Positions 1 through 37,565 of a stretch of 64,000 nt of DNA are shown here, in pieces. The translations under genes and the position numbers were made by a program. Source of the DNA: an uncultured Rikenellaceae bacterium (GTDB lineage Bacteria > Bacteroidota > Bacteroidia > Bacteroidales > VadinHA17). Position 1 is the first letter of the stretch; the number at the start of each line of letters is the position of its first letter. Under the pieces are notes generated by a model. That model saw only the letters and a program-made list of their open reading frames with translations. It was not told the DNA's origin and made no database searches. The DNA is taken from the NCBI GenBank assembly GCA_964640125.1, contig CAZXGG010000006.1, positions 15,756 to 79,755 of the forward strand. The letters run 5' to 3'.

Positions 1-79
1 GGAAATTATTGATCGTATTTATCATTTCTTCTCTTTGCATGTTTCAATCGTTTTCTAAAGCAAGCAGCCTTATGCGAAC

Positions 80-1303
80 CTACAAATTAGCACGTTTTAC
101 AATAATGGTTGAATTGGTCCCTCCAAATCCAAATGAATTGGAAAGAAAGATATTAATTTTTTTTGACATTGTTTCACAAATTATATTGAGTTTAGCAGAA
201 GCCTCATCCGGTTTTTCAAAATTGATATTTGGTGCGATAAATGAATGCTGCATCATCAGGATTGAATAGATAATTTCACTTGCTCCTCCCATCCACATTT
301 CATGACCGGTCATGGATTTGGTGGAGCTGACCGGGATATGGTATTCACCGAATATCTGGTTAAGTGCTTTTGCTTCATTCAGATCTCCTATTGGTGTAGA
401 GGTTGCATGGGCATTGATATAATCTAAACTTCTGGCATCTAAACCTGCATTGTCAATTGCTCTTTGCAGCGAGCGTACGGGTCCTTCAACGTTGGGTTGT
501 GAGATATGATCACCGTTGGAGGAGAAGCCATATCCTATCATTTCGGCCAGTATGGGAGCTCCTCTTTTCTTTGCCGACTCATACTCCTCCAGGATCAAGG
601 TAGCTGCTCCGCCACTCGGAACGAGTCCATCCCGGTCAATATCAAAGGGCCTGGAGGCTTTTGTCGGCTCATGTTCCCGCAGCGAAAATGCGCCCAATCC
701 ATCAAAACTTCCCATGGATTCCAGGCTGATCTCCTGCCCTCCACCACAGATTATCCGATCCTGCAGGCCATGTTGAATCAAGAAATAGGCCATCCCGAGT
801 GCATGCGATCCACTGGCACAGGCTCCACTTACCGTGAAATTTATTCCTTTCAGTTTATAAATAACCGACAGATTCATACTGATTGTGGAATTCATGGACT
901 GGAAGATAGTGCCTGAACCCAGCATGGTTGTATCCTTCTTCTCCCTCAACAAATCGAAGGATGCGACAACCGACTTTGCTGTGCTATCGTTCCCGTAAAG
1001 AATCCCCACTTCATTTTTCTCCAGGAACTCCCGGTCCAGACGGGCATTATCCAACGCTTCTTCAGTAGCAATAAAAGCATATTCACCCTCCTCTCCCAGG
1101 CCAACCCTTAACCTTCTATGCAGCCGGCCTTTCAAATCCGGTTTCTCAATCATTCCGGTAAGGGCGGAACGGAAACCCATTTTTTTCCGCTCCGGATCAA
1201 ACCCTATTCCCGATTTACCATAGTAAAGGGAATCCCTCACCTCGGAGAGGTTTTTGCCAATCGTCGAATAGATCCCCATTCCTGTAATAACCACCCTTCG
1301 CAT
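80..1303 (-). CDS. beta-ketoacyl-ACP synthase, KAS I/II family (elongating ketosynthase)
   Basis: 407-aa ORF. Active-site Cys in 'SGACASGSHALG'. His motifs 'INAHATSTPIGD' and 'STKSMTGHEMWMGGA'. C-terminal 'NSFGFGGTNSTIIV'. Together these give a thiolase-fold Cys-His-His KS. Confidence 0.9.
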   Translation of the reverse strand: MRRVVITGMGIYSTIGKNLSEVRDSLYYGKSGIGFDPERKKMGFRSALTGMIEKPDLKGRLHRRLRVGLGEEGEYAFIATEEALDNARLDREFLEKNEVGILYGNDSTAKSVVASFDLLREKKDTTMLGSGTIFQSMNSTISMNLSVIYKLKGINFTVSGACASGSHALGMAYFLIQHGLQDRIICGGGQEISLESMGSFDGLGAFSLREHEPTKASRPFDIDRDGLVPSGGAATLILEEYESAKKRGAPILAEMIGYGFSSNGDHISQPNVEGPVRSLQRAIDNAGLDARSLDYINAHATSTPIGDLNEAKALNQIFGEYHIPVSSTKSMTGHEMWMGGASEIIYSILMMQHSFIAPNINFEKPDEASAKLNIICETMSKKINIFLSNSFGFGGTNSTIIVKRANL

Positions 1304-1349
1304 CGATGTCCCTGTTACAATAATGGTAAAAATCTTACACTTTATTCAC

Positions 1350-2078
1350 TCAGGTGTATAACCCGCCATTTACTGAAATCACTTCGCCTGTAATATAGGA
1401 TGCCCCTTCTGACGCAAGGAATGCAACGGTTTCGGCAACCTCTTCCGGGGTGCCGAAACGATTCAGGGGAATAACGGATTTAAACTCCTTTTCATCCAGA
1501 TCCCTGGTCATATCCGTGGTGATGAAACCCGGAGCAACAGCATTCACCGTAACGTTTTTCTTGCCAACTTCCTGTGCAAGCGATTTGGTTGCGGCAATAA
1601 CACCGGCTTTTGAAGCGGCATAATTCGTTTGACCCGGAAGACCTTTTATTCCGGAGAGAGAGACAACATTTACAATCCTGCCATACTTCCCAATCATCAT
1701 ATCTTTTACCAGCCTTCTGGTCAGATAAAAAAAACCGTTCAGGTTGGTATTGATCACATCCATCCATTCTTCATCGGTCATCCAAACCAAAACGGCATCC
1801 TTGCGTATCCCGGCATTATTTATTAATATTTCAATGTACTTCTCCGGATTCCGTTCAGTCCAGGATTCCAGTGCAGCATCAATATCGGAAAGCTTTGAAA
1901 CATTAAACTGGATCAGTTCACCAGATCCACCACCATCCACTACCTGGCTCAGGGTTTGCTCTGCCTCTTCTTTACTTTTGTTGTAGTTGATCAAAACGTG
2001 ATGACCCAATCCGGCCATTTTCATGCAAATTGCCCGCCCAATACCACGCGACCCACCAGTAACCAATACATGTTTCAT
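1350..2078 (-). CDS. fabG: 3-oxoacyl-ACP reductase (SDR family, FabG-like)
   Basis: 242 aa. 'VLVTGGSRGIGRAI' (TGxxxGIG), 'NNAGI', catalytic 'YAASKAG' (YxxxK). Sits between the KS and the ammonia-lyase. Confidence 0.88.
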   Translation of the reverse strand: MKHVLVTGGSRGIGRAICMKMAGLGHHVLINYNKSKEEAEQTLSQVVDGGGSGELIQFNVSKLSDIDAALESWTERNPEKYIEILINNAGIRKDAVLVWMTDEEWMDVINTNLNGFFYLTRRLVKDMMIGKYGRIVNVVSLSGIKGLPGQTNYAASKAGVIAATKSLAQEVGKKNVTVNAVAPGFITTDMTRDLDEKEFKSVIPLNRFGTPEEVAETVAFLASEGASYITGEVISVNGGLYT

Positions 2079-2110
2079 AACAGGAGGTTGAATCCGTATA
2101 TCATTCGATA

Positions 2111-3649
2111 CTATCTCAATTTCTTTCTGGTACTCAATAGGTGCTGCTTCACTCTCCGGATCTCATCACTCATCACATGATCACCGATAAATTTGGGAAT
2201 GATGTCCCGTACTTCTTTAAAAACAGACCGGTTGAATGCAGAAAGTTTCTTCTCAATCTCCAGGTAATCCACCGCCTGAAGAACAGCGATGAGTTCAATT
2301 GCAACGACTTCATATGCATTTTCGATCACCTTTCTTGCTATCAATGCCGCAGTGGTTCCCATGCTTACGATGTCCTGGTTATCGTTGTTACATGAGATGC
2401 TATGAATATATGCCGGGAAGGATAACGTTTGGTTTTCGGCAACCGTTGATGTTGCTGTGAACTGAATCCCCTGCATTCCAAAATTCAGTCCAAGTTTTCC
2501 TAAATTCACAAACGGTTGTAATCTCGCATTCAATTTACTGTTCAAGAGGAAATTCAACTGTCGTTCTGCCAGCATGGATAATTTGCTAATGGCTATTTTC
2601 AGCTTATCCATTTCGATGGCAACGTAATCTCCATGAAAATTACCTCCGTGAAAAACATTCTCATTATCCTGGTCAATGATCGGATTATCATCCACAGAAT
2701 TGACTTCATTCATGACCACTGATTCTGCATGATCAAGTGTATCCAGCACAGGTCCCAGAATTTGAGGTATACAACGAACCGAATAGTACTCCTGTACCTT
2801 GTCGTTTAATACACCGGGACCAATATGGTTGTTATAGAGGTGTTCGGATCTTCTTCTGATCAGCTGACTATCTGAAAGAACATCCCTCATCCATTTTGAA
2901 ACGGTTCTCTGTCCCTCATGCGATTTGACCTGGTTCAGCTCAAATGAAAAATGATCGTCATAGGATTCGACAATCTCATTGATCAGGCAGGAAATGATCA
3001 CAGACCAATGCAACATGTTTCTTGCCTGTATCAGATTAACCACACCGATCCCTGACATGGCAGAGGTCCCGTTAATTATCCCCAATCCCTCACGAATATA
3101 CATTTTCAGTGGTTGAAGGGAATATTCGTCGAACACCTCCTTTGTCGGACGGGTTTCACCCTGATGAGTAACTTCTCCTTCGCCTATCAATGCAAGCCCC
3201 AGGTGGGATAATTGAACAAGGTCACCGCTTGCACCTACACCTCCATGTTCATAAATAACCGGGTAGATCTCCCGGTTTATCATCTCCTTGAGCAGGTGAA
3301 TTATATCCGGATGAACGCCGGAATTACCCTGCAAAAAGGTGATTAACCGCGCTATCATCAACGATTTAACATAGATCCCGGGGATTGGATCACCCGTGCC
3401 AGCTGAATGGCTGCGAATGAGATTATACTGAAGCTCTATCTGATCAGCCTCATCGATCCTGTATTGCGCCATGGGTCCAAGTCCGGTATTGATCCCATAG
3501 ATGATCTTATCTTTTGAAAAACCTTGCAAAAAGTCGAAACTGGATTTCACCCTGCTGATGACTTCCTCGCTGATTTCGATTTTTTCTCCACCAAAAAGCA
3601 GTCTGTAAAAATCCTCGGCGGTTACCTTCTGTTTCTTAAACGTTATCAT
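2111..3649 (-). CDS. MIO-dependent aromatic amino-acid ammonia-lyase (HAL/PAL/TAL family); by context probably tyrosine ammonia-lyase supplying a 4-coumarate starter
   Basis: 512 aa. MIO-forming Ala-Ser-Gly in 'GGVGASGDLVQLSH'. Also 'NTGLGPMAQY', 'LQYNLIRSHSAGTG', 'NDNQDIVSMG'. The TAL assignment is contextual, based on the flexirubin FlxA-type arrangement next to KS/FabG. Confidence 0.85.
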   Translation of the reverse strand: MITFKKQKVTAEDFYRLLFGGEKIEISEEVISRVKSSFDFLQGFSKDKIIYGINTGLGPMAQYRIDEADQIELQYNLIRSHSAGTGDPIPGIYVKSLMIARLITFLQGNSGVHPDIIHLLKEMINREIYPVIYEHGGVGASGDLVQLSHLGLALIGEGEVTHQGETRPTKEVFDEYSLQPLKMYIREGLGIINGTSAMSGIGVVNLIQARNMLHWSVIISCLINEIVESYDDHFSFELNQVKSHEGQRTVSKWMRDVLSDSQLIRRRSEHLYNNHIGPGVLNDKVQEYYSVRCIPQILGPVLDTLDHAESVVMNEVNSVDDNPIIDQDNENVFHGGNFHGDYVAIEMDKLKIAISKLSMLAERQLNFLLNSKLNARLQPFVNLGKLGLNFGMQGIQFTATSTVAENQTLSFPAYIHSISCNNDNQDIVSMGTTAALIARKVIENAYEVVAIELIAVLQAVDYLEIEKKLSAFNRSVFKEVRDIIPKFIGDHVMSDEIRRVKQHLLSTRKKLR

Positions 3650-3822: not shown

Positions 3823-4737
3823 CTATGAATTCATGTACACCGGCAGTTTGTTAATTGGAAAAATCCTGAAATCCCCCTCAATAAACTTGCCCATTTTGTA
3901 TAGGCTTTTTCCTGCTCCACACTCAATGAATGTTTCTATTCCCAGTTCAATCATGGTTTTCATGGTCCGATACCAGTTTATTTCAGAGTCCAGGTTTCTT
4001 GCCAGTTCATGAGCAATTTCTTCCCGGTACCTGAAAGTTGATTGATCGATCAGGGAGACCAATGGAATTTCAGATGTCTCAATACTCAGCTCATTAACAT
4101 AAGCATGAAATTCCGAAGCCACATCCTTCATAAATTTTGAATGATAGGGGCAAGATACATCGAGTAATCCGGAATGAAATGCACCTTCTGTACGGGCTTT
4201 CAATGCTACCTGTTTAACATCAGAGGAGATCCCTGAAATGACATATGAGTGGAGCCCGTTGGTATTCACAATATCAACATCATTGCTGATGGAGTGGATA
4301 ATGTTATCAAGTTCCTCATGCGTAAGACCAATGATTGCCCCCATCCCAAAATCATACTGATTCAACCTGTTGTCTGACAGTTCATATGCTTCTTTTATAC
4401 AACGTAATCCATCCTCATAGGAAATGGAATTCCCGGCATACAGTGCTGCGTAGATTCCCATACTCAATCCGGAAAGAAAATCCGGTTTTAATCCTCTTCT
4501 TTTCAGGATATTAACAACAACACAACTAAACACATAGGATATATATTGATTCTTATTTTCCTCAGCCAGGAAGTCATTGGTTTCCATTTGAAAGCTGTTC
4601 AGATCTGTTTGGGTAACCTCAGCAGCTCTTTTCAATAACGCATCAAAATCGGATGATAATAAGGAGAGAATCTGATCCTCGTTGCCAATGTATTCCGAAA
4701 TAAAAGCGGGAAAAATCCAAGCTGTTTTCATTCTCAT
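3823..4737 (-). CDS. acyl-carrier-protein acyltransferase, FabD-like fold (atypical)
   Basis: 304 aa. GxSxG nucleophile elbow 'GLSMGIYAAL' where FabD has GHSLGEY. Later 'HSGLLD..PYHS' region. Start abuts the stop of the PPTase gene. Confidence 0.7.
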   Translation of the reverse strand: MRMKTAWIFPAFISEYIGNEDQILSLLSSDFDALLKRAAEVTQTDLNSFQMETNDFLAEENKNQYISYVFSCVVVNILKRRGLKPDFLSGLSMGIYAALYAGNSISYEDGLRCIKEAYELSDNRLNQYDFGMGAIIGLTHEELDNIIHSISNDVDIVNTNGLHSYVISGISSDVKQVALKARTEGAFHSGLLDVSCPYHSKFMKDVASEFHAYVNELSIETSEIPLVSLIDQSTFRYREEIAHELARNLDSEINWYRTMKTMIELGIETFIECGAGKSLYKMGKFIEGDFRIFPINKLPVYMNS

Positions 4738-5127
4738 CTACTTAATCAAAACCACCTGAAACATCACGAAGGTTTCGGTATATTCTGCATGTGAGTCTAT
4801 TCGCTGTAATCCCTGTTGGATGAATAGTTCCTTTGCATAACCACCCAATTCGATATCATAATTTTCCTGTGTATCTCCACGAAAGATTAATTCAATGTCT
4901 TTCCAGGATATCGGGCTGTTGGTCCAGCTTCTTCCAAACGCCTTGAACATTGCCTCCTTGCAGGAGAAGCCCAATGAAAATCTGATTTCTTTGTGTAAGG
5001 CATTGTTTAACGAGACCTCCTTCTGTGTAAAAACATCAGCAATAAAGGAGGGAGGGGGTTCATATAGATCTAAATGCCTGGTAAACCTGTTTATCTCTTC
5101 AATATCAACACCGCAACCAAAGATCAT
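4738..5127 (-). CDS. acpS: 4'-phosphopantetheinyl transferase, AcpS type
   Basis: 129 aa. N-terminal 'GCGVDIEEI' (GxD Mg site), 'FTQKE', 'FSCKEAMFKAFG' (KEA motif). Directly downstream of the ACP. Confidence 0.8.
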   Translation of the reverse strand: MIFGCGVDIEEINRFTRHLDLYEPPPSFIADVFTQKEVSLNNALHKEIRFSLGFSCKEAMFKAFGRSWTNSPISWKDIELIFRGDTQENYDIELGGYAKELFIQQGLQRIDSHAEYTETFVMFQVVLIK

Positions 5128-5150: not shown

Positions 5151-5465
5151 TTAATCCAATTCCAGGATGGCATTCTCGTGTTCAATGATCAACAATTGGG
5201 TGTGGATCAATTGACCCACGGTACGCACAGGATGCTTAACATTGTATTTACCAATTGTCTTTAGATCGATATTCAGAGAGTATTTCTTTTTAAAAATTTC
5301 AATCAGTTCCAGGAACATCAGGGAATCACCACCAAGATCTTGAAAAATATCGGTTGTATCATCAATTGCGTTCAATTCCACTTCGCACTCATCGGCAAAA
5401 AATTGATAAACAATTTCATTCACTTCTTTCCGAGTCTCGTCTGTTAATTTGTTCATTTTCTTCAA
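5151..5465 (-). CDS. acyl carrier protein
   Basis: 104 aa. Phosphopantetheine attachment motif 'LGGDSLMFLELIE'. Lies between KS and PPTase. Confidence 0.85.
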   Translation of the reverse strand: MKKMNKLTDETRKEVNEIVYQFFADECEVELNAIDDTTDIFQDLGGDSLMFLELIEIFKKKYSLNIDLKTIGKYNVKHPVRTVGQLIHTQLLIIEHENAILELD

Positions 5466-5543: not shown

Positions 5544-6782
5544 TTATTCAAAAGTGTCGTACTTTTTCAGGACGATTGATGCATTGTGTCCCCCGAATGC
5601 AAATGAGTTTGAAAGGGCATGTGTTATGGGGTGTTTTCTGGCTTTGTTGGGAACAAAATCAAGGTCCAGTTCCGGATCTTTTTCATAGTTAATGGTCGGT
5701 GTGACGGTTTCTTTCAACATGCTCATGATGGTAATCGCTGCCTCGATTGCACCGGCAGCACCAATGGTATGTCCTATCATCGATTTCAATGATGAGATGG
5801 GGATCTGGTATGCTTGCTCCTGAAAAACTTTTTTGATTGCCAGTGTTTCATATCGGTCATTCAGGATTGTAGAGGTCCCGTGTGTATTAATATATTGAAT
5901 ATCAGCCGGTTTAAGATTGCTATTCTGCAAGGCCAGTTCCATGGTTTGAGCCATGCCTTCTCCATCATTCATGGGTGCCATAATATTATAGGCCTCACTG
6001 GTTAGCGCATAACCTGTAATTTCTGCAATGATTGTTGCTTTTCTCGCCAGTGCGAACTCTTCCGATTCAAGGATAAGGACACCTGCACCCTCTCCAATAA
6101 CAAATCCATCCCTGCTTTTTGAGAATGGTTTGCTTGCTTTTTCCGGAGGATCATTTTCAACCGACAGGGCAAAGAGTTCATTAAACCCGCGTATCTCTTC
6201 AGGATTGATGATTGAATCCGCCCCACCCACTATCACAATATCTGCTTTGTTCGATTGAATCAGGTCATAGCCCAATCCGATGGCATAAGCTGAGGATGCA
6301 CATGCTGTAGCCACAGTATAATTGGGTCCAAGAAGTTTATATTCCAGCGATATCCAGGCAGACATGGAATTATTCATACTTTTTAAGATCGCATTTTGAA
6401 TGGTTGTTCCCTTTTCCACACTGGAATTACCGGTATTTACAACACCCATTATTACAGCACATCGGGTTTTGTCAACGCTTGAGAAATCGATTCCGCTTTT
6501 TTCAACAGCCACTTTGGCACAGGTAAAACAGAACTGTGTCACTCTGGTCATTTGCCTTGCCGTACGTTTCCGGATATACTCTCTGGCGAGATCCTCAAAA
6601 TTCATTGGAACCTCTGCAGCAATCTGTGTTTGGAGATCTGAAGGGTCAAACAATGAAATTCGCTTAACACCGCTTTTACCCTGAACAAGGTTTTCCCAAT
6701 TCGTATCGAGATTCAGCCCAAGGGCAGAAATAACATCCATCCCCGTAACCACTACTTTTCGATTCATCGCTGTATGATTCAT
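5544..6782 (-). CDS. beta-ketoacyl-ACP synthase II family (FabF-like)
   Basis: 412 aa. 'TVATACASSAYAIG' (Cys), 'INTHGTST' (His), 'LKSMIGHTIGAAG' (His), 'NSFAFGGHNASIVL'. The start may be the internal 'MNRKVVVTG' at 6767. Confidence 0.9.
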   Translation of the reverse strand: MNHTAMNRKVVVTGMDVISALGLNLDTNWENLVQGKSGVKRISLFDPSDLQTQIAAEVPMNFEDLAREYIRKRTARQMTRVTQFCFTCAKVAVEKSGIDFSSVDKTRCAVIMGVVNTGNSSVEKGTTIQNAILKSMNNSMSAWISLEYKLLGPNYTVATACASSAYAIGLGYDLIQSNKADIVIVGGADSIINPEEIRGFNELFALSVENDPPEKASKPFSKSRDGFVIGEGAGVLILESEEFALARKATIIAEITGYALTSEAYNIMAPMNDGEGMAQTMELALQNSNLKPADIQYINTHGTSTILNDRYETLAIKKVFQEQAYQIPISSLKSMIGHTIGAAGAIEAAITIMSMLKETVTPTINYEKDPELDLDFVPNKARKHPITHALSNSFAFGGHNASIVLKKYDTFE

Positions 6783-6787
6783 TTTAT

Positions 6788-7846
6788 TTACAATTCAAAG
6801 GGACCTTTTTCACAATTCATGTATTCTTTGACCGCGAAGGTAAGTTCTTCTTCAGTACAATACCCCTGTTCGACGAACCGCGTGGCAGCATCGACATACC
6901 AACCTCTCAGCCTCTCTGTAATCGATCCGTTACACGCCTCTATGCTGCTTTTTTGATTGTTGTTATCCGGAGTGACTCTTTGCTGTGCTTCCCAGGTATA
7001 GAAACCCTGGGCCGTTTTCATCCCTAACCTGTTCTCTCTAATCATGTTCCCCAGATGATTCAGCAACGGTTGGTAGAATCCCCGGTTCTTCGCATTTTCC
7101 GTGTACCGGTCAATTGAATTGCGTATTACATCAATTCCAACACGATCAAAAAATTCAAACACTCCCACAGGGAAAAAATCCCTTACAATCAAGTCATCCA
7201 TTTCTTTAAATGAAAGGTTGTTCTCTTTACATAGCTGGAATGCTCCTGCCTGAAAATCCAAAAATAAACGGTTTAACAAAAAAGCACTTTCCCCCTGCTG
7301 AAGAATAAACTTCTTATTCATGTGGTTTAGGAAAAGCCGGGAGTTCTGCAGTGTTTGCCTGCTTGTATTCCGGGCAATGATTAACTCGACAATATTGGTA
7401 AACGGGACGGGATAAAAAAAATGCATCCCAATCACTTTATCTTTCCTCTTACCATGTGTATACCAATCTTCCGGGAGTATGGAAGAGGAACAGGATGCAA
7501 AGATACAATCGCTATTTGTGACCCGATCAAGTTTTTCAAACAATTTTCTTTTCAGGCAGAGATCCTCCGTTATGGTTTCGATGATTAAATTACATTGTGC
7601 CAACTTCCGGGGCAAATGACTTACGTGTATTTGATTCAACCGGTTTTCATACCTGTCATGATCAATAAGTCCTGTTCTAAACGTTCTCGTCCATCTTTTC
7701 CTTACCTGTTTTTCAAGATCCTCAACATCATTCTTTGTTTTGCAGATCCACACCAGTGGGAATTCAAAGTCAAGGAGATAACCGAAAAGACTGGTTCCCA
7801 TTTTTCCTTTCCCTACGATACCCACATGAAAATCTAACGGGTTCAT
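6788..7846 (-). CDS. 3-hydroxyacyl-CoA dehydrogenase family, NAD-binding
   Basis: Rossmann 'VGIVGKGKMGTSL' followed by a 3HCDH-like body. I place the start at the ATG at 7846 ('MNPLDFHVG'). That ATG overlaps the upstream rSAM stop as ATGA. The track ORF extends to 7873. Confidence 0.75.
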   Translation of the reverse strand: MNPLDFHVGIVGKGKMGTSLFGYLLDFEFPLVWICKTKNDVEDLEKQVRKRWTRTFRTGLIDHDRYENRLNQIHVSHLPRKLAQCNLIIETITEDLCLKRKLFEKLDRVTNSDCIFASCSSSILPEDWYTHGKRKDKVIGMHFFYPVPFTNIVELIIARNTSRQTLQNSRLFLNHMNKKFILQQGESAFLLNRLFLDFQAGAFQLCKENNLSFKEMDDLIVRDFFPVGVFEFFDRVGIDVIRNSIDRYTENAKNRGFYQPLLNHLGNMIRENRLGMKTAQGFYTWEAQQRVTPDNNNQKSSIEACNGSITERLRGWYVDAATRFVEQGYCTEEELTFAVKEYMNCEKGPFEL

Positions 7847-9577: not shown

Positions 9578-9654
9578 TGATTTAAAAGTGGTTAATAAAA
9601 TCCTGGAGATCCGTAAACCAATCCCATGTATTGTTACCTCTGAGACAGTGTACT

Positions 9655-29783: not shown

Positions 29784-29879
29784 TATTCATTCTTCATCAG
29801 GTTGTCTGATCCACATTTCTTCTGTATAATTCTCACGGCCCATACCTGGTCTGACATATCGAGTTAATTTTTGGTAGTG

Positions 29880-30971
29880 ATGAAACATTCTTACCTCCTT
29901 GCCGGAATAAAATTGAGCCATTTTTTTCGACTGATCAGGCGGAATGGATTATCCTATCGTCCAAAATACCTATTCCGCGTCCTTTTTTTGTTGCAAGGAG
30001 GAGTCTGGTCATCTTTCCTCTCCTCTCTCGAGGTAAAACGGTTCAGAGAAAAGACAAAGAATTTTCAGCCACCTGATGATCCGATTTTCATTATTGGACA
30101 TTGGAGGACGGGGAGCACCTATCTCCATCAATTGTTAAACCTGGATGATCGATTTGCATCCCCGACGGTTTTTCAGGTCTCCGTTCCCGATAATTTTTTG
30201 GTTTCCAGACGATATTATAAACCCATCATAACCCGCATGCTGGGAAGTGTTCGTCCGATGGATCAGGTTAAACTTGGTTTTGATGAGCCACAAGAGGATG
30301 AATATGCGATTTTGAAAATGGGCATGCAGTCACCCCTTGAAAAACTGATCTTTCCTAAAAACCAACGCTATTTTCTCTCCGGTTATTCTACCTTCGTCCC
30401 GGACACAACTCAACTCAACGGGTGGATCGATTCCTTTAAATTGTTTTATACGAAACTTGTTTTTCATTACAAAACAAGGATCCTGTTTAAAAATCCATTC
30501 CATTCCCTGCGAATCGAGCTGTTAAAAAAGATGTTCCCAAATGCCTATTTCATCCACATTTACCGAAATCCATACGTTGTTGTTCCCTCCACACGGCACA
30601 TGTGGAGAATTGTTGGAAGACAGAATTGTCTGCGACAATATCATTCCGATCCACCGTTTTCTGAAGTGGTTTCCTTTTATAAAATGATGATGAACAACAT
30701 CAGAAAATCCCTGGATTCACTCCCGGAGAACAGCTTTAGTGAGGTGAAATTTGAGGAGTTTGAAACCGATCCGCTGCACGTACTCAAAACCCTGTATGAT
30801 CAAATGGGCCTGACTTTTTCCTCAGAACAGGAACAGGTAATACTCAATTTTCTCAGGCAAAACAAAGATTTTAGAAAAAACAGGTATACATTATCCGCAG
30901 AGGAAGCGGATCAGATTTCAGTAGAATTGAGTCATGAATTGAAACGATGTGGTTATGAGAATCCGTATTAA
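29880..30971 (+). CDS. PAPS-dependent sulfotransferase family protein
   Basis: 5'-PSB loop 'IIGHWRTGSTYLHQLL' and 3'-PB-like 'IYRNPYVVVPST'. ATG at 29880 is preferred over the TTG at 29871. Confidence 0.78.
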   Translation: MKHSYLLAGIKLSHFFRLIRRNGLSYRPKYLFRVLFLLQGGVWSSFLSSLEVKRFREKTKNFQPPDDPIFIIGHWRTGSTYLHQLLNLDDRFASPTVFQVSVPDNFLVSRRYYKPIITRMLGSVRPMDQVKLGFDEPQEDEYAILKMGMQSPLEKLIFPKNQRYFLSGYSTFVPDTTQLNGWIDSFKLFYTKLVFHYKTRILFKNPFHSLRIELLKKMFPNAYFIHIYRNPYVVVPSTRHMWRIVGRQNCLRQYHSDPPFSEVVSFYKMMMNNIRKSLDSLPENSFSEVKFEEFETDPLHVLKTLYDQMGLTFSSEQEQVILNFLRQNKDFRKNRYTLSAEEADQISVELSHELKRCGYENPY

Positions 30972-31021: not shown

Positions 31022-32290
31022 ATGAAATTTAAACTGATATATCCGCGATGGGAGAAACTGGAGGGGCAGACCATTTTTAATCTTCCCCCGCATGGCCCGG
31101 TTGTATTTGCAGCAGCCCTGCCCGATTTTGTCGAGATTGATTTCATTGATGAAAACGTTCAGCCGCTTGACTTTGAGGATCCGGTTGATTTTGTTGGTAT
31201 TTCAATGATGCTCACCATACAGCTTAAACGGGGCTGGGAGATCGCCCATGAATACCAGAAAAGGGGCATAAAGGTAATCTTCGGAGGGATCGCCACCATG
31301 TTGCACGCTGAAGAAACAATGCAACATGCCGACTCAATATTCCTCGGTGAAGTAGAAGGCAGACTGGAACAGGTCTTTGAGGACTTCAAACAAAACCGGT
31401 TAAAGAAAGTCTATAATTATTTGAATCAGGAGCCATTAGATGTCTCTATTGTTGGCCCTGCACGCAGGGATATCCTTACCAGGGAACTTTACTTCCATAA
31501 AGGAGTGCAGATGGTTGACCTGTTCCATGCATCGCGGGGGTGCAGGTTCAATTGCTACCCATGTGCCGTCTCTTTTCTGGGCGGAAGAGTATTCCGGCCA
31601 CGACCGATCGAAAAGTCAATCGAGGAATTGGAAACCATTGAAAACAACCGGCTCTTCATTGTGGATAATTCCCTCGCACAGGACACACAGTGGGAAAAAG
31701 ATCTCTTCAAAGCCATGATCCCCTTGAAAAAAAACTGGTGCAGTCATACCATTGAAGATAAACCCGAAGTGTTGGATCTTGCTGCCCAGGCTGGTGCATG
31801 GTATGTTTACCAGGCAATATTTGATACCTCCGACTACATCAGAAAGAGAATACAACGATACCATGACTTTGGCATTTCAGTGGAAGGGACTATCTTGCTC
31901 GGAATGGATAACCAGACCGAGGATGACATAAAACGGCTGATTGATTTTCTTCTTGAAATTAACCTTGATCTCGCTGAATTCACCGTGTTGACACCCTTCC
32001 CACATACCAAAGCACATGATGATCTAAAAAAAGAACGCCGGATTATCAGCAACGATTGGAACGATTACAACGCCGGAAAGGTCGTTTTTAAACCAAAGCA
32101 TATGTCTCCGGAACGGTTACAGGAATTGTACCATTATGCCTGGGATTCATTTTATAAGGATGAAACACAGGAGCAGAAAATGTTCACATTAATTATGAAA
32201 GTAATCGAAAAAGAGATGGACGATGGTACCTACCAACCCCGGAGAAGAGATCTTGCCGATAAAAGTTTCGGAAGGGTTATTCAACGGTAA
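31022..32290 (+). CDS. B12-binding-domain radical SAM enzyme (class B), paralog 4
   Basis: 'VDFVGISMML...VIFGGIATM...HADSIFLGEVE' and 'ASRGCRFNCYPCAV'. ATG at 31022 ('MKFKLIYP') is preferred over the TTG at 31004. Confidence 0.85.
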   Translation: MKFKLIYPRWEKLEGQTIFNLPPHGPVVFAAALPDFVEIDFIDENVQPLDFEDPVDFVGISMMLTIQLKRGWEIAHEYQKRGIKVIFGGIATMLHAEETMQHADSIFLGEVEGRLEQVFEDFKQNRLKKVYNYLNQEPLDVSIVGPARRDILTRELYFHKGVQMVDLFHASRGCRFNCYPCAVSFLGGRVFRPRPIEKSIEELETIENNRLFIVDNSLAQDTQWEKDLFKAMIPLKKNWCSHTIEDKPEVLDLAAQAGAWYVYQAIFDTSDYIRKRIQRYHDFGISVEGTILLGMDNQTEDDIKRLIDFLLEINLDLAEFTVLTPFPHTKAHDDLKKERRIISNDWNDYNAGKVVFKPKHMSPERLQELYHYAWDSFYKDETQEQKMFTLIMKVIEKEMDDGTYQPRRRDLADKSFGRVIQR

Positions 32291-32333: not shown

Positions 32334-32708
32334 ATGAAAGGTCAGGATCAATTTGTTGAAGAAATGTATCACTTCAAGGGTGAATGGGGAATCCCTTCCC
32401 TGTGTGGTTTGAAAATTGTTATAAAAAAAGAGAAAGCAATCATCCTGGTCACTGAATTTTATGATACTAACCCTGGTACATCGATAACGAATTGGAATAC
32501 TCATCTGGCGCAGGAGATCTGCCAGAAATACAGGATTGATCCGAACCGTATGATATTCATCGAGCATGCGCCGAAAACGAGTTCAACCTTATCCTTTTAT
32601 CAGGAGACTTTTGATCGCGTCACCTTCGCCTGGGATGGAGAATCGCTTGCTGATCCTAAATGGGAAAGAATAAGTAAAGAGGAGGTTATAAAACTGATGG
32701 ATGAATAA
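32334..32708 (+). CDS. hypothetical protein (no recognisable domain)
   Basis: 124-aa ORF in operon context between the rSAM and the ligase. No motif recognised. Confidence 0.5.
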   Translation: MKGQDQFVEEMYHFKGEWGIPSLCGLKIVIKKEKAIILVTEFYDTNPGTSITNWNTHLAQEICQKYRIDPNRMIFIEHAPKTSSTLSFYQETFDRVTFAWDGESLADPKWERISKEEVIKLMDE

Positions 32709-32726
32709 TATTGAAATTGTCATCAT

Positions 32727-34079
32727 ATGAACCTGCATGAAATAACCAATATGCCTCCGGGCTGGGATTTTATTCCTGAAATTGAAAAACAACCATCCGA
32801 TGTTGTTGAGAAATATCAGGTTGAAAAATTGGTGAATCTGTTACATTATCTTTCCGGTAACTCCGCCTTTTACTCCGCGCTGTTCAAACAGTGCGGATTG
32901 GATATCGGTGCAATCCGAACCCTGAAAGATCTCTCGCATATTCCCCCAACGACAAAGAATGATCTGCAGTTATATAACCTGGATTTTATCTGTGTCGGAC
33001 AGGAAAAAATCATAGATTACATTACCACTTCCGGGACCCTTGGTGACCCCGTTACCCTGGCAATGACCGATCAGGATCTGAATCGTCTGGCGTACAATGA
33101 AGCCATCTCCTTTGCCTGTGCCGACGGTTCTTCCAATGATATCTATCAGCTTGCGCTGACCATTGACAAACGGTTTATGGCTGGCCTGGCCTATTGGATG
33201 GGAGCCCGAAAGCTGGGAGCAGGAGTTGTCAGGGTTGGAGGCGGTATTCCGGAATTGCAGTGGGATACTGTTCAACGACTATCCCCAACAACAATCGTTT
33301 GTGTTCCATCATTCATTCTGAAACTGATTGAATATGCCGAACAGCAAAAAATAGATTATCGCAACTCCTCATTAAAAAAGGCGGTATGTATTGGAGAACC
33401 AATCCGAAATCCTGATTTCACACTGGGCCCGATCGGGACAAGAATAAAGGAAAAATGGGGACTTGCACTCTATTCAACCTATGCATCCACAGAGATGTCA
33501 ACCGCTTTTACAGAATGCAGACAGGGAAAGGGCGGTCATCATCACCCGGAACTTATCATTGTTGAATTTCTTGACGAGAAGGATACCCCGGTTCGTGAAG
33601 GGGAGGCTGGTGAAGTTACAATTACTACCCTCGGTGTGGAGGGAATGCCCCTGTTGCGCTATAAGACCGGAGATATCTGTTTCCACTATACCGATCCCTG
33701 TCCATGCGGGCGTCAGAGCATGCGGTTGGGACCGGTTATTGGCAGAAAAAATCAGATGATCAAATTCAAAGGAACCACACTCTATCCCTATGCTTTATAC
33801 GATATTCTCGATAACCTGCAGGAGGTGGCAAATTATGTTGTAGAGGTGTATACCGACGAGATTGGTACGGATCAAATCTTAATCCGCATCGGATGTGAAC
33901 AGATACCGCAAGGTTTTGAAAAGGAGATCAAAGATCATTTCCGTGCACGCCTGCGGGTTGCTCCTGCTATTCGTTTTGAATCCATCGACTACATCAATAA
34001 GATACAAAATCCCCGGTCGGGAAGAAAAACGGTAAAATTTATCGACCACAGGAACAATAAAAAACAACAGGATAACTAA
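32727..34079 (+). CDS. phenylacetate-CoA ligase / F390-synthetase family adenylate-forming enzyme (PaaK-like)
   Basis: 450 aa. 'ITTSGTLGDPV' (AMP motif), 'STYASTEM', 'LRYKTGDI'. Short PaaK-type architecture. Confidence 0.8.
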   Translation: MNLHEITNMPPGWDFIPEIEKQPSDVVEKYQVEKLVNLLHYLSGNSAFYSALFKQCGLDIGAIRTLKDLSHIPPTTKNDLQLYNLDFICVGQEKIIDYITTSGTLGDPVTLAMTDQDLNRLAYNEAISFACADGSSNDIYQLALTIDKRFMAGLAYWMGARKLGAGVVRVGGGIPELQWDTVQRLSPTTIVCVPSFILKLIEYAEQQKIDYRNSSLKKAVCIGEPIRNPDFTLGPIGTRIKEKWGLALYSTYASTEMSTAFTECRQGKGGHHHPELIIVEFLDEKDTPVREGEAGEVTITTLGVEGMPLLRYKTGDICFHYTDPCPCGRQSMRLGPVIGRKNQMIKFKGTTLYPYALYDILDNLQEVANYVVEVYTDEIGTDQILIRIGCEQIPQGFEKEIKDHFRARLRVAPAIRFESIDYINKIQNPRSGRKTVKFIDHRNNKKQQDN

Positions 34080-34165: not shown

Positions 34166-35293
34166 TCAACGATACTCAAACGTAAATCCGGCTTGCATAA
34201 ACTTACTCACCTCGGTTACAAAACTGAGTACCAGGTCTCCTTTTTCCATGGACTCTTCCCGCATGATCTTGTCCATACAGATGAATACCATTGGAGGTCC
34301 GACGTATCCCATGGAAGCCATTTTTGAATAGAAGGCATCCCTGGGAATCCCAAGGTTTGCAGACTCTTCCAGCACAATCTCAGAAATATGCCTTGATGGG
34401 AAATTAATCTGGAAAAAGCGGATCTTGCGAATATCGATGGGATAACGGGTAAGCATCCGTTTTAAACCCTGGTAAAAAACAGAACCCTCCTCCTCATAAA
34501 AATGTTCGCGCAATTGCTCATTAAACATCTGGGAGAGGTGGTGTAATCCTTGTTCATACTCATCCCTGGGATTAATCCAATAGGCCGGACGGTGGTTCAA
34601 CATCGATGCTGGTTTGTTCCCACCGATGGATTCCATATAGGAGTTTTTCAGGAAAAATCCACCGGTCATCTTATTTTCTGCCTGCAATACAATAGCCCCC
34701 GCTCCATCACTCAAAAAATACCGCAAAAAAACCTCTTCTTTCTTCAGGATCTCCTGATGATAATATTCGGCACGCAACTCGGAAGATGACATGCTGGAGG
34801 AGATGATGAGAGCATTCCTATACCTGCCAGACTGCAACAGGTCATGTGCCACTACTACTCCCTTATATGCAGAAGTGCAATTAGCATGTATGGATAGTTC
34901 ACTGCAGTGATCGATTCCCAGTGCTTCCTGGATTCTTACCGAAGCGGTTGGCATCTGGTCCTGGTGAGCACTTCCGTAAATGATCAGTTCCAGATCGTTC
35001 GGGCGAATACCGGCCATATCCAATGCTTTCCTTGCAGATTTAACTGACATGGTCACATTATCATCAGTAAATTCCCTGGTTTCTGGATCAATGGCAAAAT
35101 GATAGTACTCCACCTCCAGCATCTCTTTCATCAATAGCTTCATCCTTTTCAACCATTTTTGTATTCGTACAGGCGCCCTGGTCAACTCACCCAGAAAATA
35201 ATCCACCTCATCAATGGTTACCGGAGTCCCGGGTAGATATGAGCCAGTACCTGTCAACTTAATGTGCACACTATTTTTCATTGCTCTTGTCAA
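34166..35293 (-). CDS. KAS III (FabH/CHS-like thiolase fold) family protein, non-canonical active site
   Basis: 375 aa. Colinear with FabH. Cys candidate in 'IHANCTSAYKG'. Carries 'FFQINFPSRH' where FabH has 'PHQAN', and 'MGYVGPP' where FabH has 'YGNTSAAS'. C-terminal 'KGDLVLSF'. Confidence 0.75.
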   Translation of the reverse strand: MTRAMKNSVHIKLTGTGSYLPGTPVTIDEVDYFLGELTRAPVRIQKWLKRMKLLMKEMLEVEYYHFAIDPETREFTDDNVTMSVKSARKALDMAGIRPNDLELIIYGSAHQDQMPTASVRIQEALGIDHCSELSIHANCTSAYKGVVVAHDLLQSGRYRNALIISSSMSSSELRAEYYHQEILKKEEVFLRYFLSDGAGAIVLQAENKMTGGFFLKNSYMESIGGNKPASMLNHRPAYWINPRDEYEQGLHHLSQMFNEQLREHFYEEEGSVFYQGLKRMLTRYPIDIRKIRFFQINFPSRHISEIVLEESANLGIPRDAFYSKMASMGYVGPPMVFICMDKIMREESMEKGDLVLSFVTEVSKFMQAGFTFEYR

Positions 35294-35966
35294 ATTCCAT
35301 CAACTGTTTTTCACCATAAATCCGGTTATACTTTCCTTCCAGGAATTTTGCCAATCGCACTGCATAGGTCAGTATACCCTTTTTATCCAACACTTTATCC
35401 ACAACTCCCCATGCAAGTGCTTCCCGCGGGGTAAAACTATGTCCTCCCAGAACGATTTCAAACGTTTTTAAAGTATCGGTTAAGTTTAGCATATAATGCA
35501 CTCCGCCCAAGCCAGGCAGCAGATTAAAGGATGATTCCGGTAATCCGAGAACAGCTCTTTCGGAACAAATTCGTATATGGCAGCTCAATGCCAATTCAAA
35601 AGCAGCTCCAAGGCAAACTCCTGTAATAACAGCAATAACAGGAATAGACATTCTGCTGAAAAAACGAAAGGTTTCCAGGTTTTCAATCAAGAAATCAGGT
35701 TGTTTATCTGCCTGACTTGAGTGGCTTTCCGAACAATTTTCGGTGACGTTTTGAAGCAGGTCTTTCAATTCAGCACCCGAAGAAAAGTGCCGGCCCTTTC
35801 CGTAAACCAGGATTGCATTGATCTTTTCATCTGGAATGACATTCCGCACAAGATCACCCAGTTCTTTGAAAAACAGGTTGCCCATGGAATTGTTTGGTGG
35901 CTGGTTCAGCACTAAATGTCCTATCATCTCCTCCACTTTCCACTCTATGGTTGTATAGTGATCCAC
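35271..35966 (-). CDS. enoyl-CoA hydratase/isomerase (crotonase) family
   Basis: 231 aa. 'GKGRHFSSGAEL', 'GVCLGAAFELALSCHIRIC', 'LGLPESSFNLLPGLGG'. Both catalytic Glu positions are present. Confidence 0.82.
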   Translation of the reverse strand: MDHYTTIEWKVEEMIGHLVLNQPPNNSMGNLFFKELGDLVRNVIPDEKINAILVYGKGRHFSSGAELKDLLQNVTENCSESHSSQADKQPDFLIENLETFRFFSRMSIPVIAVITGVCLGAAFELALSCHIRICSERAVLGLPESSFNLLPGLGGVHYMLNLTDTLKTFEIVLGGHSFTPREALAWGVVDKVLDKKGILTYAVRLAKFLEGKYNRIYGEKQLMEFDKSNEK

Positions 35967-35991
35967 AATTTAAATGGGGTTATTTCTTTAT

Positions 35992-36360
35992 TTATATCTC
36001 AATAATGATCATTCCAACTACCCGTTTCCTGGAATGCGAAATAGAACAGCAGATATTTTGTATCCCTCTGTTGTAACACCAACCTTTCAAATGATCAGAC
36101 AAACGGAGTACAGGTTTCCCAAAATCGTCGTTCAATATCTCGATTTCCCTGAAATCTCCCTCGTGCTGAAACTCAGTAAACAGTAGCTTTTTTATAATGT
36201 ATCGTCCTGCAAGGCTCCCAGCATTCGCTTTACCTGGGAAAAGCTCCAGTTCCCTCGGTGTGAACAATGGCTCAAGAACAGATTTCTTGTTAAATCGTTC
36301 GTGCCATTTATCAAGCAACATGATCTCATGTTTCTTTCCATATTTAACCGAATGATTCAC
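35992..36360 (-). CDS. AcpS-like phosphopantetheinyl-transferase homolog, apparently degenerate
   Basis: 122 aa. 'FTPRELELF', 'LAGRYIIKKLLF', 'EIEILNDDFGKPVL' and 'ISHSRKRVVGMIIIE' are colinear with AcpS. No N-terminal GxD motif, and KK replaces the KE(A/S) Glu. Confidence 0.55.
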   Translation of the reverse strand: MNHSVKYGKKHEIMLLDKWHERFNKKSVLEPLFTPRELELFPGKANAGSLAGRYIIKKLLFTEFQHEGDFREIEILNDDFGKPVLRLSDHLKGWCYNRGIQNICCSISHSRKRVVGMIIIEI

Positions 36361-36388
36361 TGCAGCATGGGATTTTCAACGATAACGT

Positions 36389-37141
36389 TCAGTCTGATTC
36401 ATTTTCTCTTCGCTTTGCTTCTTTGCAGGCAAGATCACAAAAAAGTTTTGTCTCTTCTATAAAGGCTTCCTCAGCGGTTTTATTCCTGCAATAATAGATC
36501 GCTCTGGTGATGGCTTGAATGACTTCCATCGGTTTATTATGAACCATAGATTTCAACAGATGGACGGAATAGGATAAGGTTTCACCAGAATCCACAACAT
36601 GGTCCACAATATTCAATTCCAATGCTTTTTCTGCATCAATCATATCCCCACCAATGATCATCTCATAACTCACTCCTCCTTTGAGAAGTTTTGATAACCG
36701 GCGAATACCTCCAAGACCGGGCATCAAATTGTGGTTTACTTCAGGAAAAGCAAACAGGGTTTTTTCGCCGCAAACTCTAATATGGCAGGCTAACGCAATT
36801 TCAAAGCCCCCTCCAAAACAGATTCCGTCAACAGCGGCTACGACGGGAATATTCAATTCTTCAATTGATTGTAACAGGCGTTTCCCCTGTTCGATTTTCT
36901 TTTGAAGCAGGTTTTTCTTCCCGGCTATTTCAAATAATTCCTGAAGATCTGCCCCCGCAGAAAAATGCCTGCCACTACCTGTAAAAACAAGACCTTTCAG
37001 CCTGTTTTTATGAAGAAAATCCTCCAACTCGCTATCCTTCAGAAAATCCGGTTCAGACAGGGAGTTCTCTGGAGGATTATCCAGGGTAATGATTCCAACA
37101 GGGTCATCAACAGTAAATTGAATATGTCCTTTCTTATTCAT
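36389..37141 (-). CDS. enoyl-CoA hydratase/isomerase (crotonase) family
   Basis: 250 aa. 'GSGRHFSAGADL', 'GICFGGGFEIALACHIRVC', 'FAFPEVNHNLMPGLGG'. Confidence 0.85.
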   Translation of the reverse strand: MNKKGHIQFTVDDPVGIITLDNPPENSLSEPDFLKDSELEDFLHKNRLKGLVFTGSGRHFSAGADLQELFEIAGKKNLLQKKIEQGKRLLQSIEELNIPVVAAVDGICFGGGFEIALACHIRVCGEKTLFAFPEVNHNLMPGLGGIRRLSKLLKGGVSYEMIIGGDMIDAEKALELNIVDHVVDSGETLSYSVHLLKSMVHNKPMEVIQAITRAIYYCRNKTAEEAFIEETKLFCDLACKEAKRRENESD

Positions 37142-37565
37142 TAAGCATCATTAAAATCTCTTGTGGCATATCAATGGGTGTCCTTGTTTCATCCAGCAAT
37201 AACGTTTTAACAGTTGCTTTTGATACCTTTTTATTTGAACCGGATTGAAGCATTTCATGATGAAAAATCAGATAGGGATCTTCCCTTCCAATGGATGTGT
37301 TGATCACCAGTTTATCAAAAAGTTTGATCTCTCTAATGTATTTAATGTGTGTCTCAACCACAACCAGAAAATTACCCGATTTCCTGAAGAAGTCAATGAG
37401 TCCTTTCTCCTTCATAATCTCCCACCTTGCATGTTCGAAATAGTTGAGATAAACGGCATTGTTCACATGGTTGAATGAATCGAGCTCATATCCCCTAACC
37501 TCAACAAAACTTTGAAACATAGATATAATTATTAAATGATTTGTCTGCCGGAAATTATTCATCAC
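37134..37565 (-). CDS. hotdog-fold acyl-CoA/ACP thioesterase (4HBT/YbgC family)
   Basis: 'VEVRGYELDSFNHVNNAVYLNYFEHARWE' is the typical 4HBT N-terminal motif. The true start may be 'MFQSF' at 37520. Confidence 0.8.
   Translation of the reverse strand: MMNNFRQTNHLIIISMFQSFVEVRGYELDSFNHVNNAVYLNYFEHARWEIMKEKGLIDFFRKSGNFLVVVETHIKYIREIKLFDKLVINTSIGREDPYLIFHHEMLQSGSNKKVSKATVKTLLLDETRTPIDMPQEILMMLNE

Follow-up and report, generated by a model that had tools for sequence, protein, structure and literature searches.

Among aerobic Bacteroidota, flexirubins count as a chemotaxonomic pigment. Here we describe a cluster of about 41 kb in which flexirubin-type genes are interleaved with five radical S-adenosylmethionine (SAM) genes and a sulfotransferase gene. 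It was found in an uncultured Rikenellaceae bacterium (GenBank assembly GCA_964640125.1, contig CAZXGG010000006.1, positions 15,756 to 79,755; this stretch of 64,000 nucleotides is called the window below). The cluster takes up positions 1-37565 of the window and about 3.6 kb beyond its left edge. From its gene content, we think it fairly probable that the whole forms one biosynthetic gene cluster making a flexirubin-like aryl-capped lipid without DarA or DarB.

The reference clusters for flexirubins are Fjoh_1074-1110 of Flavobacterium johnsoniae and the flx and dar genes of Chitinophaga pinensis (Schoner et al. 2014, PMC3992019). With them the present cluster shares the tyrosine ammonia-lyase (TAL) FlxA, FlxB, FlxY, DarH, type II ketosynthase (KS) and acyl carrier protein (ACP) genes, a LipA-type acyltransferase and a C45 protein. 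A CrtI-like reductase, a glycosyltransferase (GT), an exporter/acyltransferase, a thioesterase (TE) and outer-membrane barrels are also common to both, and the sizes are similar (both about 37-41 kb). In contrast to the reference clusters, DarA is missing from the window and the sole relative of DarB no longer has the His, Asn and Glu residues, while five B12 radical-SAM genes, a sulfotransferase, two crotonases, a 3-hydroxyacyl-CoA dehydrogenase (3HCDH), a FabD-like acyltransferase (AT) lacking Arg and two phosphopantetheinyl transferases (PPTases) have been added. The window showed no LolA, no deacetylase, no ABC transporter and no halogenase.

A second group comprises the "ladderane-type" lipid clusters of Kuenenia, Desulfotalea and Geobacter, which combine type II fatty acid synthesis (FASII) with radical-SAM genes (Rattray et al. 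2009, PMC2649909). Their products, proposed as ladderanes in Kuenenia and polyunsaturated hydrocarbons in Desulfotalea, are themselves unproven (PMC2649909). Like the present cluster, they mix type II KS, ACP and ketoreductase genes with several radical-SAM genes and phytoene-desaturase-like flavoproteins. A further link is the family TIGR04072, to which rSAM5 belongs and the other four radical-SAM proteins, rSAM1 to rSAM4, do not (20-77 bits). Among the loci compared, which are labeled with L-numbers, three from Geobacter/Sedimenticolaceae metagenome-assembled genomes (MAGs; L021, L023, and L029) match in a family 2 glycosyltransferase (GT2), LipA-type acyltransferase, ACP, radical SAM, AT, radical SAM, FabG and KS. 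These looser lipid clusters are probably the same as the "ladderane-like" FASII clusters reported for deltaproteobacteria (Rattray et al. 2009). The ladderane-type clusters differ from ours in having no TAL, FlxY, DarH or sulfotransferase.

The aryl polyene (APE) clusters of Escherichia coli and Vibrio have in common with the present one an ApeP-like dehydratase, an MMPL exporter, GT2, lysophospholipid-type acyltransferases and an iterative type II KS; ApeI-like and LolA genes occur in loci related to the window. Unlike in APE clusters, the starter would come from TAL and FlxY, not from 4-hydroxybenzoate, and no pair of KS and chain-length factor was identified in the window. The described APE clusters are without the radical-SAM and sulfotransferase set. 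Finally, the Stf and CurM/OLS sulfotransferases share with the window enzyme the Sulfotransfer_3/Sulfotransfer_1 fold of the type using 3'-phosphoadenosine-5'-phosphosulfate (PAPS), as well as a lipid or polyketide context, but the similarity is remote (E from 5e-9 to 7e-3) and the window enzyme stands free in a DarH-ACP-sulfotransferase-rSAM4 cassette.

In the literature, no paper was found that ties flexirubin or aryl-polyene clusters to radical SAM or sulfotransferases, or this gene set to a compound. A 2026 review on lipid-modifying radical-SAM enzymes mentions neither flexirubin, nor Bacteroidota, nor sulfotransferases. An earlier reading of the window from its letters and open reading frames (ORFs) only, the original prediction below, had proposed a pathway for an undescribed aryl-lipid, and in keeping with this no gene-for-gene counterpart with a known compound turned up in the literature. 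Judged by its genes, the product is probably a membrane lipid or pigment so far undescribed.

Extent and gene content of the cluster

The ORF listing and Pfam scans gave 33 nearly gapless genes across positions 1-37565, in five transcription blocks on alternating strands: 80-9429 (-), 9631-16711 (+), 16794-23242 (-), 23405-34079 (+) and 34166-37565 (-). The right border is the hotdog thioesterase ending at 37565. The original prediction had counted six transcription units; the sixth starts with MutS2 (37714) and opens the right flank, where MutS2/SiaC/Usp/TonB are common to two related genomes (L091 and L092). It had also expected the cluster to continue to the left, and it does: the metagenome contig L001, which is identical to the window, shows the continuation (positions 10653-13635), with ACP0, a LipA-type acyltransferase, rSAM5 and an ApeP-like hotdog dehydratase all on the same strand. 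The ORF that opens at position 40 of the window ("MQREEMINTINNF") is ACP0, of 81 aa. The reported lack of a hotdog dehydratase thus holds inside the window and fails just outside it: there is no FabZ-like dehydratase within the window because the ApeP-like enzyme sits just to its left.

The gene order at this end can be compared with that of F. johnsoniae, where TAL is followed at some distance by KS, ACP, the LipA acyltransferase, DarA, DarB and a hotdog protein (PMC3992019, Table S5). Here, the order is TAL, FlxB, KS_A, ACP0, LipA acyltransferase, rSAM5 and the ApeP-like dehydratase. Since the two orders line up (by the published table and in order only, orientation aside), rSAM5 appears to occupy the place of DarA/DarB.

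Every gene class named in the original prediction is present, no more than about 20 bases from where it had been put. The features are the following.

1..40 (-): 5' part of ACP0 (81 aa), cut off by the left edge of the window
80..1303 (-): KS_A, FabB/FabF-like ketosynthase with a Cys-His-His triad
1350..2078 (-): FlxB, flexirubin short-chain dehydrogenase/reductase-type ketoreductase (NF053542, 386.6 bits against a cutoff of 340)
2111..3649 (-): FlxA, tyrosine ammonia-lyase, an enzyme with a 4-methylideneimidazole-5-one (MIO) group (NF053541, 820 bits against 700; Pfam E 1e-160)
3823..4737 (-): AT, divergent FabD-like acyltransferase (Pfam) with GLSMG, Arg117 replaced by Ala and the catalytic His kept
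4738..5127 (-): PPT1, AcpS-type phosphopantetheinyl transferase (Pfam)
5151..5465 (-): ACP1 (Pfam)
5544..6782 (-): KS_B, FabF-like ketosynthase with a Cys-His-His triad
6788..7873 (-): 3HCDH (Pfam)
7843..9429 (-): rSAM1, with B12-binding, radical SAM and DUF4070 domains
9631..11064 (+): rSAM2, with B12-binding and Radical_SAM domains; possible alternative ATG start at 9655
11180..11740 (+): small protein similar to outer-membrane beta-barrels, with conserved counterparts in L087 and L088; hairpin terminator downstream at 11763-11789
11936..14332 (+): outer-membrane barrel; CarboxypepD_reg domain, weak match to Plug
14452..14829 (+): secreted protein of 125 aa with a weak desulfoferrodoxin-like match, co-conserved in L087, L088, L109 and L171
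14895..15071 (+): hydrophobic ORF of 58 aa, conserved in L087 and L088
15374..16711 (+): rSAM3, with B12-binding and Radical_SAM domains; best family HpnR, far below the cutoff
16794..18128 (-): PlsC-type membrane acyltransferase (Pfam)
18125..21976 (-): fusion of an MMPL exporter and a SAM methyltransferase (Pfam)
22022..23242 (-): membrane glycosyltransferase, GT2 plus DUF2062 (Pfam)
23405..24916 (+): CrtI-like flavin oxidoreductase, counterpart of Fjoh_1077
24924..26627 (+): C45 acyltransferase/hydrolase, counterpart of Fjoh_1076
26705..27805 (+): O-methyltransferase with a dimerization domain (Pfam)
28000..28473 (+): DarG-related protein of 157 aa (NF053545, 60.5 bits against 170, E 1.7e-16)
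28473..29474 (+): DarH, BtrH-related acyltransferase with BtrH_N and DUF4872 (NF053550, 313 bits against 300)
29499..29783 (+): ACP2 (Pfam)
29871..30971 (+): PAPS-type sulfotransferase (Sulfotransfer_3 and Sulfotransfer_1)
31022..32290 (+): rSAM4, with B12-binding and Radical_SAM domains; alternative start at 31004
32334..32708 (+): hyp124, in no Pfam or NCBIfam family
32727..34079 (+): FlxY, of the 4-coumarate-CoA ligase type (NF053551, 688 bits against 520)
34166..35293 (-): KSIII-like protein of the StlD/DarB lineage (KSIII), Cys kept, Asn and Tyr in place of His and Asn
35271..35966 (-): crotonase ECH_a, both catalytic Glu kept
35992..36360 (-): PPT2, divergent AcpS-like protein (domain and family scans)
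36389..37141 (-): crotonase ECH_b, both catalytic Glu kept
37134..37565 (-): TE, hotdog acyl-CoA thioesterase of the YbgC/FadM type (Pfam)

Flexirubin-type genes

FlxA, FlxB, FlxY and DarH all score above the curated NCBIfam cutoffs for flexirubin proteins (listed above), which bears out the flexirubin/aryl-polyene type that had been assigned to the cluster. The MIO tripeptide Ala-Ser-Gly of FlxA lies at residue 140. The DarG-like protein also reaches 54.4 bits, against a cutoff of 70, with the model of the wider family. Neither Pfam nor NCBIfam gave a DarA match among the window proteins, in agreement with the original prediction.

The canonical flexirubin block of FlxY, C45, CrtI-like, exporter/acyltransferase and GT genes is kept. 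In F. johnsoniae, the gene table lists phenylacetate-CoA-ligase-type, C45, CrtI-like reductase, exporter/acyltransferase and GT genes, along with outer-membrane barrels, a LipA acyltransferase, a thioesterase and a BtrH-like protein (PMC3992019, Table S5), and the dialkylresorcinol (DAR) cluster of Azoarcus also holds a BtrH-like gene (PMC3949708). By these tables, two supposed oddities of the cluster, a BtrH_N protein with its own ACP and a PaaK-type ligase, are the canonical flexirubin genes DarH and FlxY, and the C45, CrtI-like, GT2, exporter/acyltransferase and outer-membrane barrel genes are canonical as well. Truly non-canonical are the added genes named above (five radical-SAM genes, sulfotransferase, two crotonases, 3HCDH, the AT lacking Arg, and two PPTases) and the Cys-only KSIII. 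So is, on the same comparison, the absence from the window of DarA and of a catalytic DarB.

Five distinct radical-SAM enzymes

The motif CX3CX2C occurs in rSAM1 to rSAM5, and Pfam recognizes B12-binding and Radical_SAM domains in them, some with scores below the gathering cutoff. With these features, they fit the definition of class B (cobalamin-dependent) radical-SAM enzymes; the four in the window had been predicted as such, and domains and motif were found in all four. Their pairwise identity is just 20-29%, yet each has its own ortholog elsewhere, and by this pattern of divergence the five genes are old, distinct paralogs.

Only rSAM5 passes the TIGR04072 model of a lipid-biosynthesis B12/radical-SAM family (425 bits against a cutoff of 360), which is not reached by rSAM1 (76.7 bits), rSAM2 (58.8), rSAM3 (19.9) or rSAM4 (41). 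This family has long been suspected to act in the synthesis of ladderanes and anaerobic polyunsaturated lipids; to our knowledge, no reaction is yet known for it. The family models nearest to rSAM1 are HpnJ and BchE, and its best match among solved structures is AprD4, a diol dehydratase and not a methylase. The nearest model to rSAM3 is the hopanoid methylase HpnR, and rSAM3 identity is 62-67% in L005, in L089 and in the L109-type loci. The most conserved of the set is rSAM4, with 69-98% identity in 75 metagenome loci. A genome scan with rSAM1 returned three true orthologs among mostly generic B12 radical-SAM matches and no cultured host, the sole isolate match (Carboxylicivirga sp.) being a generic paralog. 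One rSAM1-like gene, from a group with 46-49% identity, adjoins mevalonate-pathway genes in a genome of 6 Mb.

Divergent ketosynthase, acyltransferase and crotonase genes

The triad Cys-His-His is complete in both KS_A and KS_B. The AT carries GLSMG where GHSLG is expected, and Ala where FabD has its malonyl-binding Arg (Arg117). Compared with StlD, its closest solved relative, KSIII keeps the Cys and has Asn for His, Tyr for Asn and Ser for Glu. All the residue claims made before hold, namely the MIO lyase, two Cys-His-His ketosynthases, an AT without the malonyl Arg and a KSIII without His and Asn. Since the KSIII substitutions are invariant in five orthologs (61-89% identity), they are a family trait and not decay. 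KSIII scores low, with 110 bits for the StlD/DarB model (cutoff 450) and 89.7 bits for the DarB model (cutoff 550), and a role as a DarB-like cyclase is weakened by the replacement of StlD's His, Asn and Glu. The solved homologs of ECH_a and ECH_b include p-hydroxycinnamoyl-CoA hydratase/lyase. A beta-branching cassette of the 3-hydroxy-3-methylglutaryl (HMG)-synthase kind was rejected, because KSIII reaches only 20-37 bits with HMG-CoA synthase models and both crotonases keep the hydratase Glu.

The sulfotransferase cassette

A metagenome scan was seeded with rSAM4, and the loci were scored by tblastn with all window proteins. It yielded the 75 loci with an rSAM4 ortholog. Six genes form a cassette of fixed order: DarG-like, DarH, ACP2, sulfotransferase, rSAM4 and hyp124. 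DarH and ACP2, together with the DarG-like gene, were present in all 19 sulfotransferase loci that had enough DNA, and in the compared loci the DarG-like gene always lies before DarH. The gene directly upstream of rSAM4 is the sulfotransferase in 22 and C45 in 7 of 44 loci, and hyp124 follows directly downstream in 59 of 66. In most related loci, the counterpart of the outer-membrane barrel at 11936-14332 comes directly after rSAM4-hyp124.

The product of hyp124 matches no family in Pfam or NCBIfam. Its AlphaFold model, a confident one (predicted local distance difference test score, 84.8), gave nothing significant against the PDB with Foldseek (best E 7e-3, template-modeling score 0.27). Cys24, Asn-Pro-Gly 46-48 and Glu-Thr-Phe-Asp 91-94 are invariant, and the model suggests that hyp124 may be a new small fold partnering rSAM4.

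The sulfotransferase belongs to a family of 734 members. In structure searches, it matches the mycobacterial Stf lipid sulfotransferases (E 5e-9), followed by those of OLS (4e-4) and CurM (7e-3). It is free-standing, 6 kb from the hotdog thioesterase. A sulfotransferase-thioesterase module at the end of a polyketide synthase, as in CurM/OLS, does not fit, since the two are neither fused nor adjacent and these E values are only 4e-4 to 7e-3. In CP070687.1 (L092, a 2.94 Mb Bacteroidales MAG; positions 1-10000), the genes cysC, cysD and cysN, which stand for PAPS supply, adjoin the sulfotransferase in divergent orientation.

A conserved core and a variable aryl-starter part

The close relatives L093, L087, L088 and L091 have the same gene order, with 75-98% protein identity. 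More distant loci show how the set is assembled. In L005, a genome of 5.3 Mb, TE-ECH-ECH-KSIII-rSAM1-3HCDH-KS_B-ACP1-AT is a single same-strand block, of which the Bacteroidota MAG L009 holds TE through rSAM1. GCA_964468645.1 (L089/L090) has orthologs of 17 window genes, with 36-77% identity, in about 27 kb. These are rSAM1 (52%), rSAM2 (63%), rSAM3 (67%) and rSAM4 (77%), the DarG-like gene, DarH, ACP2, the sulfotransferase, hyp124, an outer-membrane barrel, KSIII, both crotonases, TE, 3HCDH, KS_B, ACP1 and AT, to which LolA and ApeI-like genes are added. The block of L005 is kept compactly there, with ACP1-AT on its other side. In the window, it is split into two halves (34166-37565 and 80-9429) that bracket all other genes. 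The identity of KS_B is 69% in L005 and L089, and that of ACP1 is 63-69% in distant loci.

The aryl-starter genes are distributed differently. In five reordered loci (L109, L111, L112, L119, and L171), ApeP-(rSAM5)-LipA acyltransferase-ACP0-KS_A-FlxB-TAL lies directly beside the six-gene cassette, followed by ACP1-PPT-AT and then by rSAM3 with a barrel; KS_A identity in these TAL-bearing loci is 71-76%. Of the 20 loci whose flanks are complete, only 5 have a TAL gene no farther than 10 kb from rSAM4. In loci of the L095 type, GT2, MMPL, PlsC, CrtI-like and C45 genes are joined to rSAM4-hyp124 without sulfotransferase or DarH. In four genomes (the window, L091, L092, and L093), both the KSIII operon and the pair rSAM4-hyp124 have FlxY as an immediate neighbor.

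These comparisons of gene content show that the radical-SAM/sulfotransferase/KSIII/crotonase set is a conserved core and that the aryl-starter genes are the variable part. The picture of a flexirubin cluster with extras, from which the original prediction had started, is thereby inverted. Its expectation of co-conservation was borne out: the radical-SAM, sulfotransferase and BtrH/ACP genes recur together, and the five reordered loci also keep TAL, KS and FlxB. All relatives are metagenome contigs or MAGs, labeled Bacteroidales, Bacteroidota and Chlorobi, and Spirochaetota for one relative of rSAM1.

Proposed pathway and alternative explanations

Going by family membership, FlxA would deaminate tyrosine to 4-coumarate, and FlxY would convert this to its CoA thioester. 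KS_A, FlxB, the ApeP-like dehydratase and ACP0 would then extend the starter to an aryl-polyenoyl-ACP. A second moiety would replace the dialkylresorcinol and be built by KS_B, ACP1, the AT lacking Arg, 3HCDH, the two crotonases, KSIII, TE and rSAM1-3; co-conservation of these genes is what was observed, and the chemistry is what we propose from it. The crotonases and 3HCDH could supply enoyl- and beta-ketoacyl-CoA, the types of thioester condensed by enzymes of the StlD/DarB type. A role of KSIII in this step is tentative, as the StlD residues are lost. The radical-SAM enzymes might carry out oxygen-independent C-methylation, C-C bond formation or dehydration. DarH and ACP2 would transfer an ACP-bound acyl group onto the second-moiety acceptor in the manner of BtrH, and the sulfotransferase would sulfate a hydroxyl. 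The CrtI-like enzyme, C45 and O-methyltransferase could finish the molecule, with PlsC, the LipA-type acyltransferase and GT2 anchoring it and the MMPL fusion and outer-membrane barrel exporting it. An anaerobic lifestyle of the hosts is plausible, because five oxygen-sensitive enzymes are encoded and the relatives are only MAGs and metagenome contigs. In its full form, the proposal is tentative and rather doubtful as a whole: uncultivated, probably anaerobic Bacteroidota would make an outer-membrane lipid of a new class, in which a tyrosine-primed polyene is joined by DarH to a partner built without oxygen by B12 radical-SAM enzymes. These would stand in for the DarA/DarB resorcinol route and, by analogy with the proposals for ladderane-type clusters, may form rings or C-C cross-links; the lipid would bear a sulfate ester.

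Several observations weigh against a single flexirubin-like pathway. DarH clears its cutoff narrowly, and the DarG, DarB and FlxJ models score below theirs. DarB-like cyclization is doubtful, since KSIII is without StlD's His, Asn and Glu. Family and structure matches fix no reaction for any of the radical-SAM genes. Relatives of rSAM1 with 46-49% identity sit outside any such lipid cluster (L004, L007, and L008), so that its subfamily is not cluster specific. Half of the scored loci (22 of 44) have rSAM4-hyp124 but no sulfotransferase. In L092, the sulfotransferase is truncated and annotated as partial (327 aa), and DarH, ACP2, the O-methyltransferase and C45 are absent at that locus. Finally, GCA_964468645.1 has no TAL, FlxY, C45, CrtI-like, GT2 or MMPL gene within 32 kb; a compact cluster without TAL and FlxY suggests that the conserved core may make its own product without an aryl cap.

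The last point leads to the alternative that survives best, though we regard it as unlikely: two pathways would be juxtaposed, one an ordinary aryl-polyene/flexirubin-type pathway (FlxA, FlxB, FlxY, KS_A, C45, CrtI-like, GT2, MMPL, and PlsC), the other an independent radical-SAM/sulfotransferase pathway making its own sulfated, branched or cyclized lipid without an aryl cap. The composition of the compact L089/L090 cluster, where DarH, KSIII, crotonases and KS_B accompany the radical-SAM and sulfotransferase genes, fits such a division, as do the scarcity of TAL near rSAM4 and the L095-type loci, in which GT2, MMPL, PlsC, CrtI-like and C45 genes are joined by rSAM4-hyp124 but by neither sulfotransferase nor DarH. 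However, the two gene sets are interleaved in the window, the flexirubin-type genes lie between the two halves of the conserved TE...AT operon, and the cassette itself contains the DarG-like gene and DarH, which are flexirubin/DAR-cluster genes. The position of FlxY against rSAM4-hyp124 and the KSIII operon in four genomes, and that of TAL, KS and FlxB beside the cassette in five reshuffled loci, also argue for one pathway.

Two further alternatives are improbable, and to the same degree. In the first, the sulfotransferase would be an activator: a sulfated beta- or other hydroxyl would serve as a leaving group, as with the sulfotransferase-thioesterase pairs of CurM and OLS, elimination or rSAM4 chemistry would then give an alkene or ring, and the final product would be sulfate free. 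It could draw on the weak structure matches to the OLS and CurM sulfotransferases, on the position of rSAM4, always directly after the sulfotransferase, and on the presence of a hotdog thioesterase in the cluster. But the Stf lipid sulfotransferases match better, the thioesterase is neither adjacent nor fused, and the absence of the sulfotransferase from half of the rSAM4-hyp124 loci indicates that rSAM4 does not depend on sulfation.

In the second, the crotonases, 3HCDH, KSIII and TE would build no second moiety but shorten 4-coumaroyl-CoA beta-oxidatively to 4-hydroxybenzoyl-CoA, by hydration, oxidation and thiolytic cleavage. A benzoyl-type starter is the one used by aryl polyenes of the E. 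coli type. In favor of this reading, the substrate 4-coumaroyl-CoA is itself an enoyl-CoA. Neither crotonase has lost its pair of catalytic Glu, and both have the hydratase/lyase homologs mentioned above; FlxY adjoins the crotonase/KSIII operon in the window, L091, L092 and L093, and KSIII has a nucleophilic Cys without decarboxylation residues. Against this, the operon with rSAM1, 3HCDH, KS_B, ACP1 and AT is also found without TAL or FlxY nearby, thiolytic cleavage normally requires the two Cys and one His of a thiolase rather than a KSIII fold, and KS_B, ACP1 and AT would be left without a role.

The cluster suggests a parallel, radical-SAM-based version of flexirubins that is widespread in uncultivated Bacteroidota of sediments and anoxic habitats. 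It would link a readable start, from tyrosine to coumaroyl-CoA, to five lipid-modifying radical-SAM enzymes, and a sulfated aryl lipid, if present in the outer membrane, would add a new surface molecule and a new biomarker.

Other observations in and around the cluster

No Rfam match was found anywhere in the window, where a cobalamin riboswitch and other RNAs were sought, so that the barrel at 11936-14332 is not supported as a riboswitch-controlled B12 importer. A plasmid origin was rejected, as megablast gave no plasmid match. Positions 15108-15188 (+) are the last 27 codons left of a gene for a secreted protein of 204 aa, followed by a strong hairpin terminator at 15259-15283. L087 and L088, both close relatives, have the gene intact in the stretch from the 58-aa ORF to rSAM3, and the window copy therefore looks like a deletion remnant. 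In L088, a 75%-identical relative, a family-less gene of 379 aa (7126-8265) lies between the small outer-membrane protein and rSAM2; neither the window nor L087 has it.

The remainder of the window beyond the cluster and its flank is made up of an ECF-sigma/TonB set and a starch-utilization locus with T9SS-tailed enzymes, and these genes assign the organism to Bacteroidota. Further to the right, positions 40878-45967 encode an extracytoplasmic function (ECF) sigma factor flanked by three proteins with TonB_C domains, one of which is a VIT-vWA-TonB_C fusion of 802 aa. A starch-utilization locus follows at 46865-62172, with a LacI regulator, SusC, SusD with SusE/F-like domains, SusE, a glycoside hydrolase (GH) of family GH53 and three of family GH13. 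One of the GH13 enzymes bears the sorting tail of the type IX secretion system (T9SS), and a CotH-like T9SS protein is encoded at 62206-63981.

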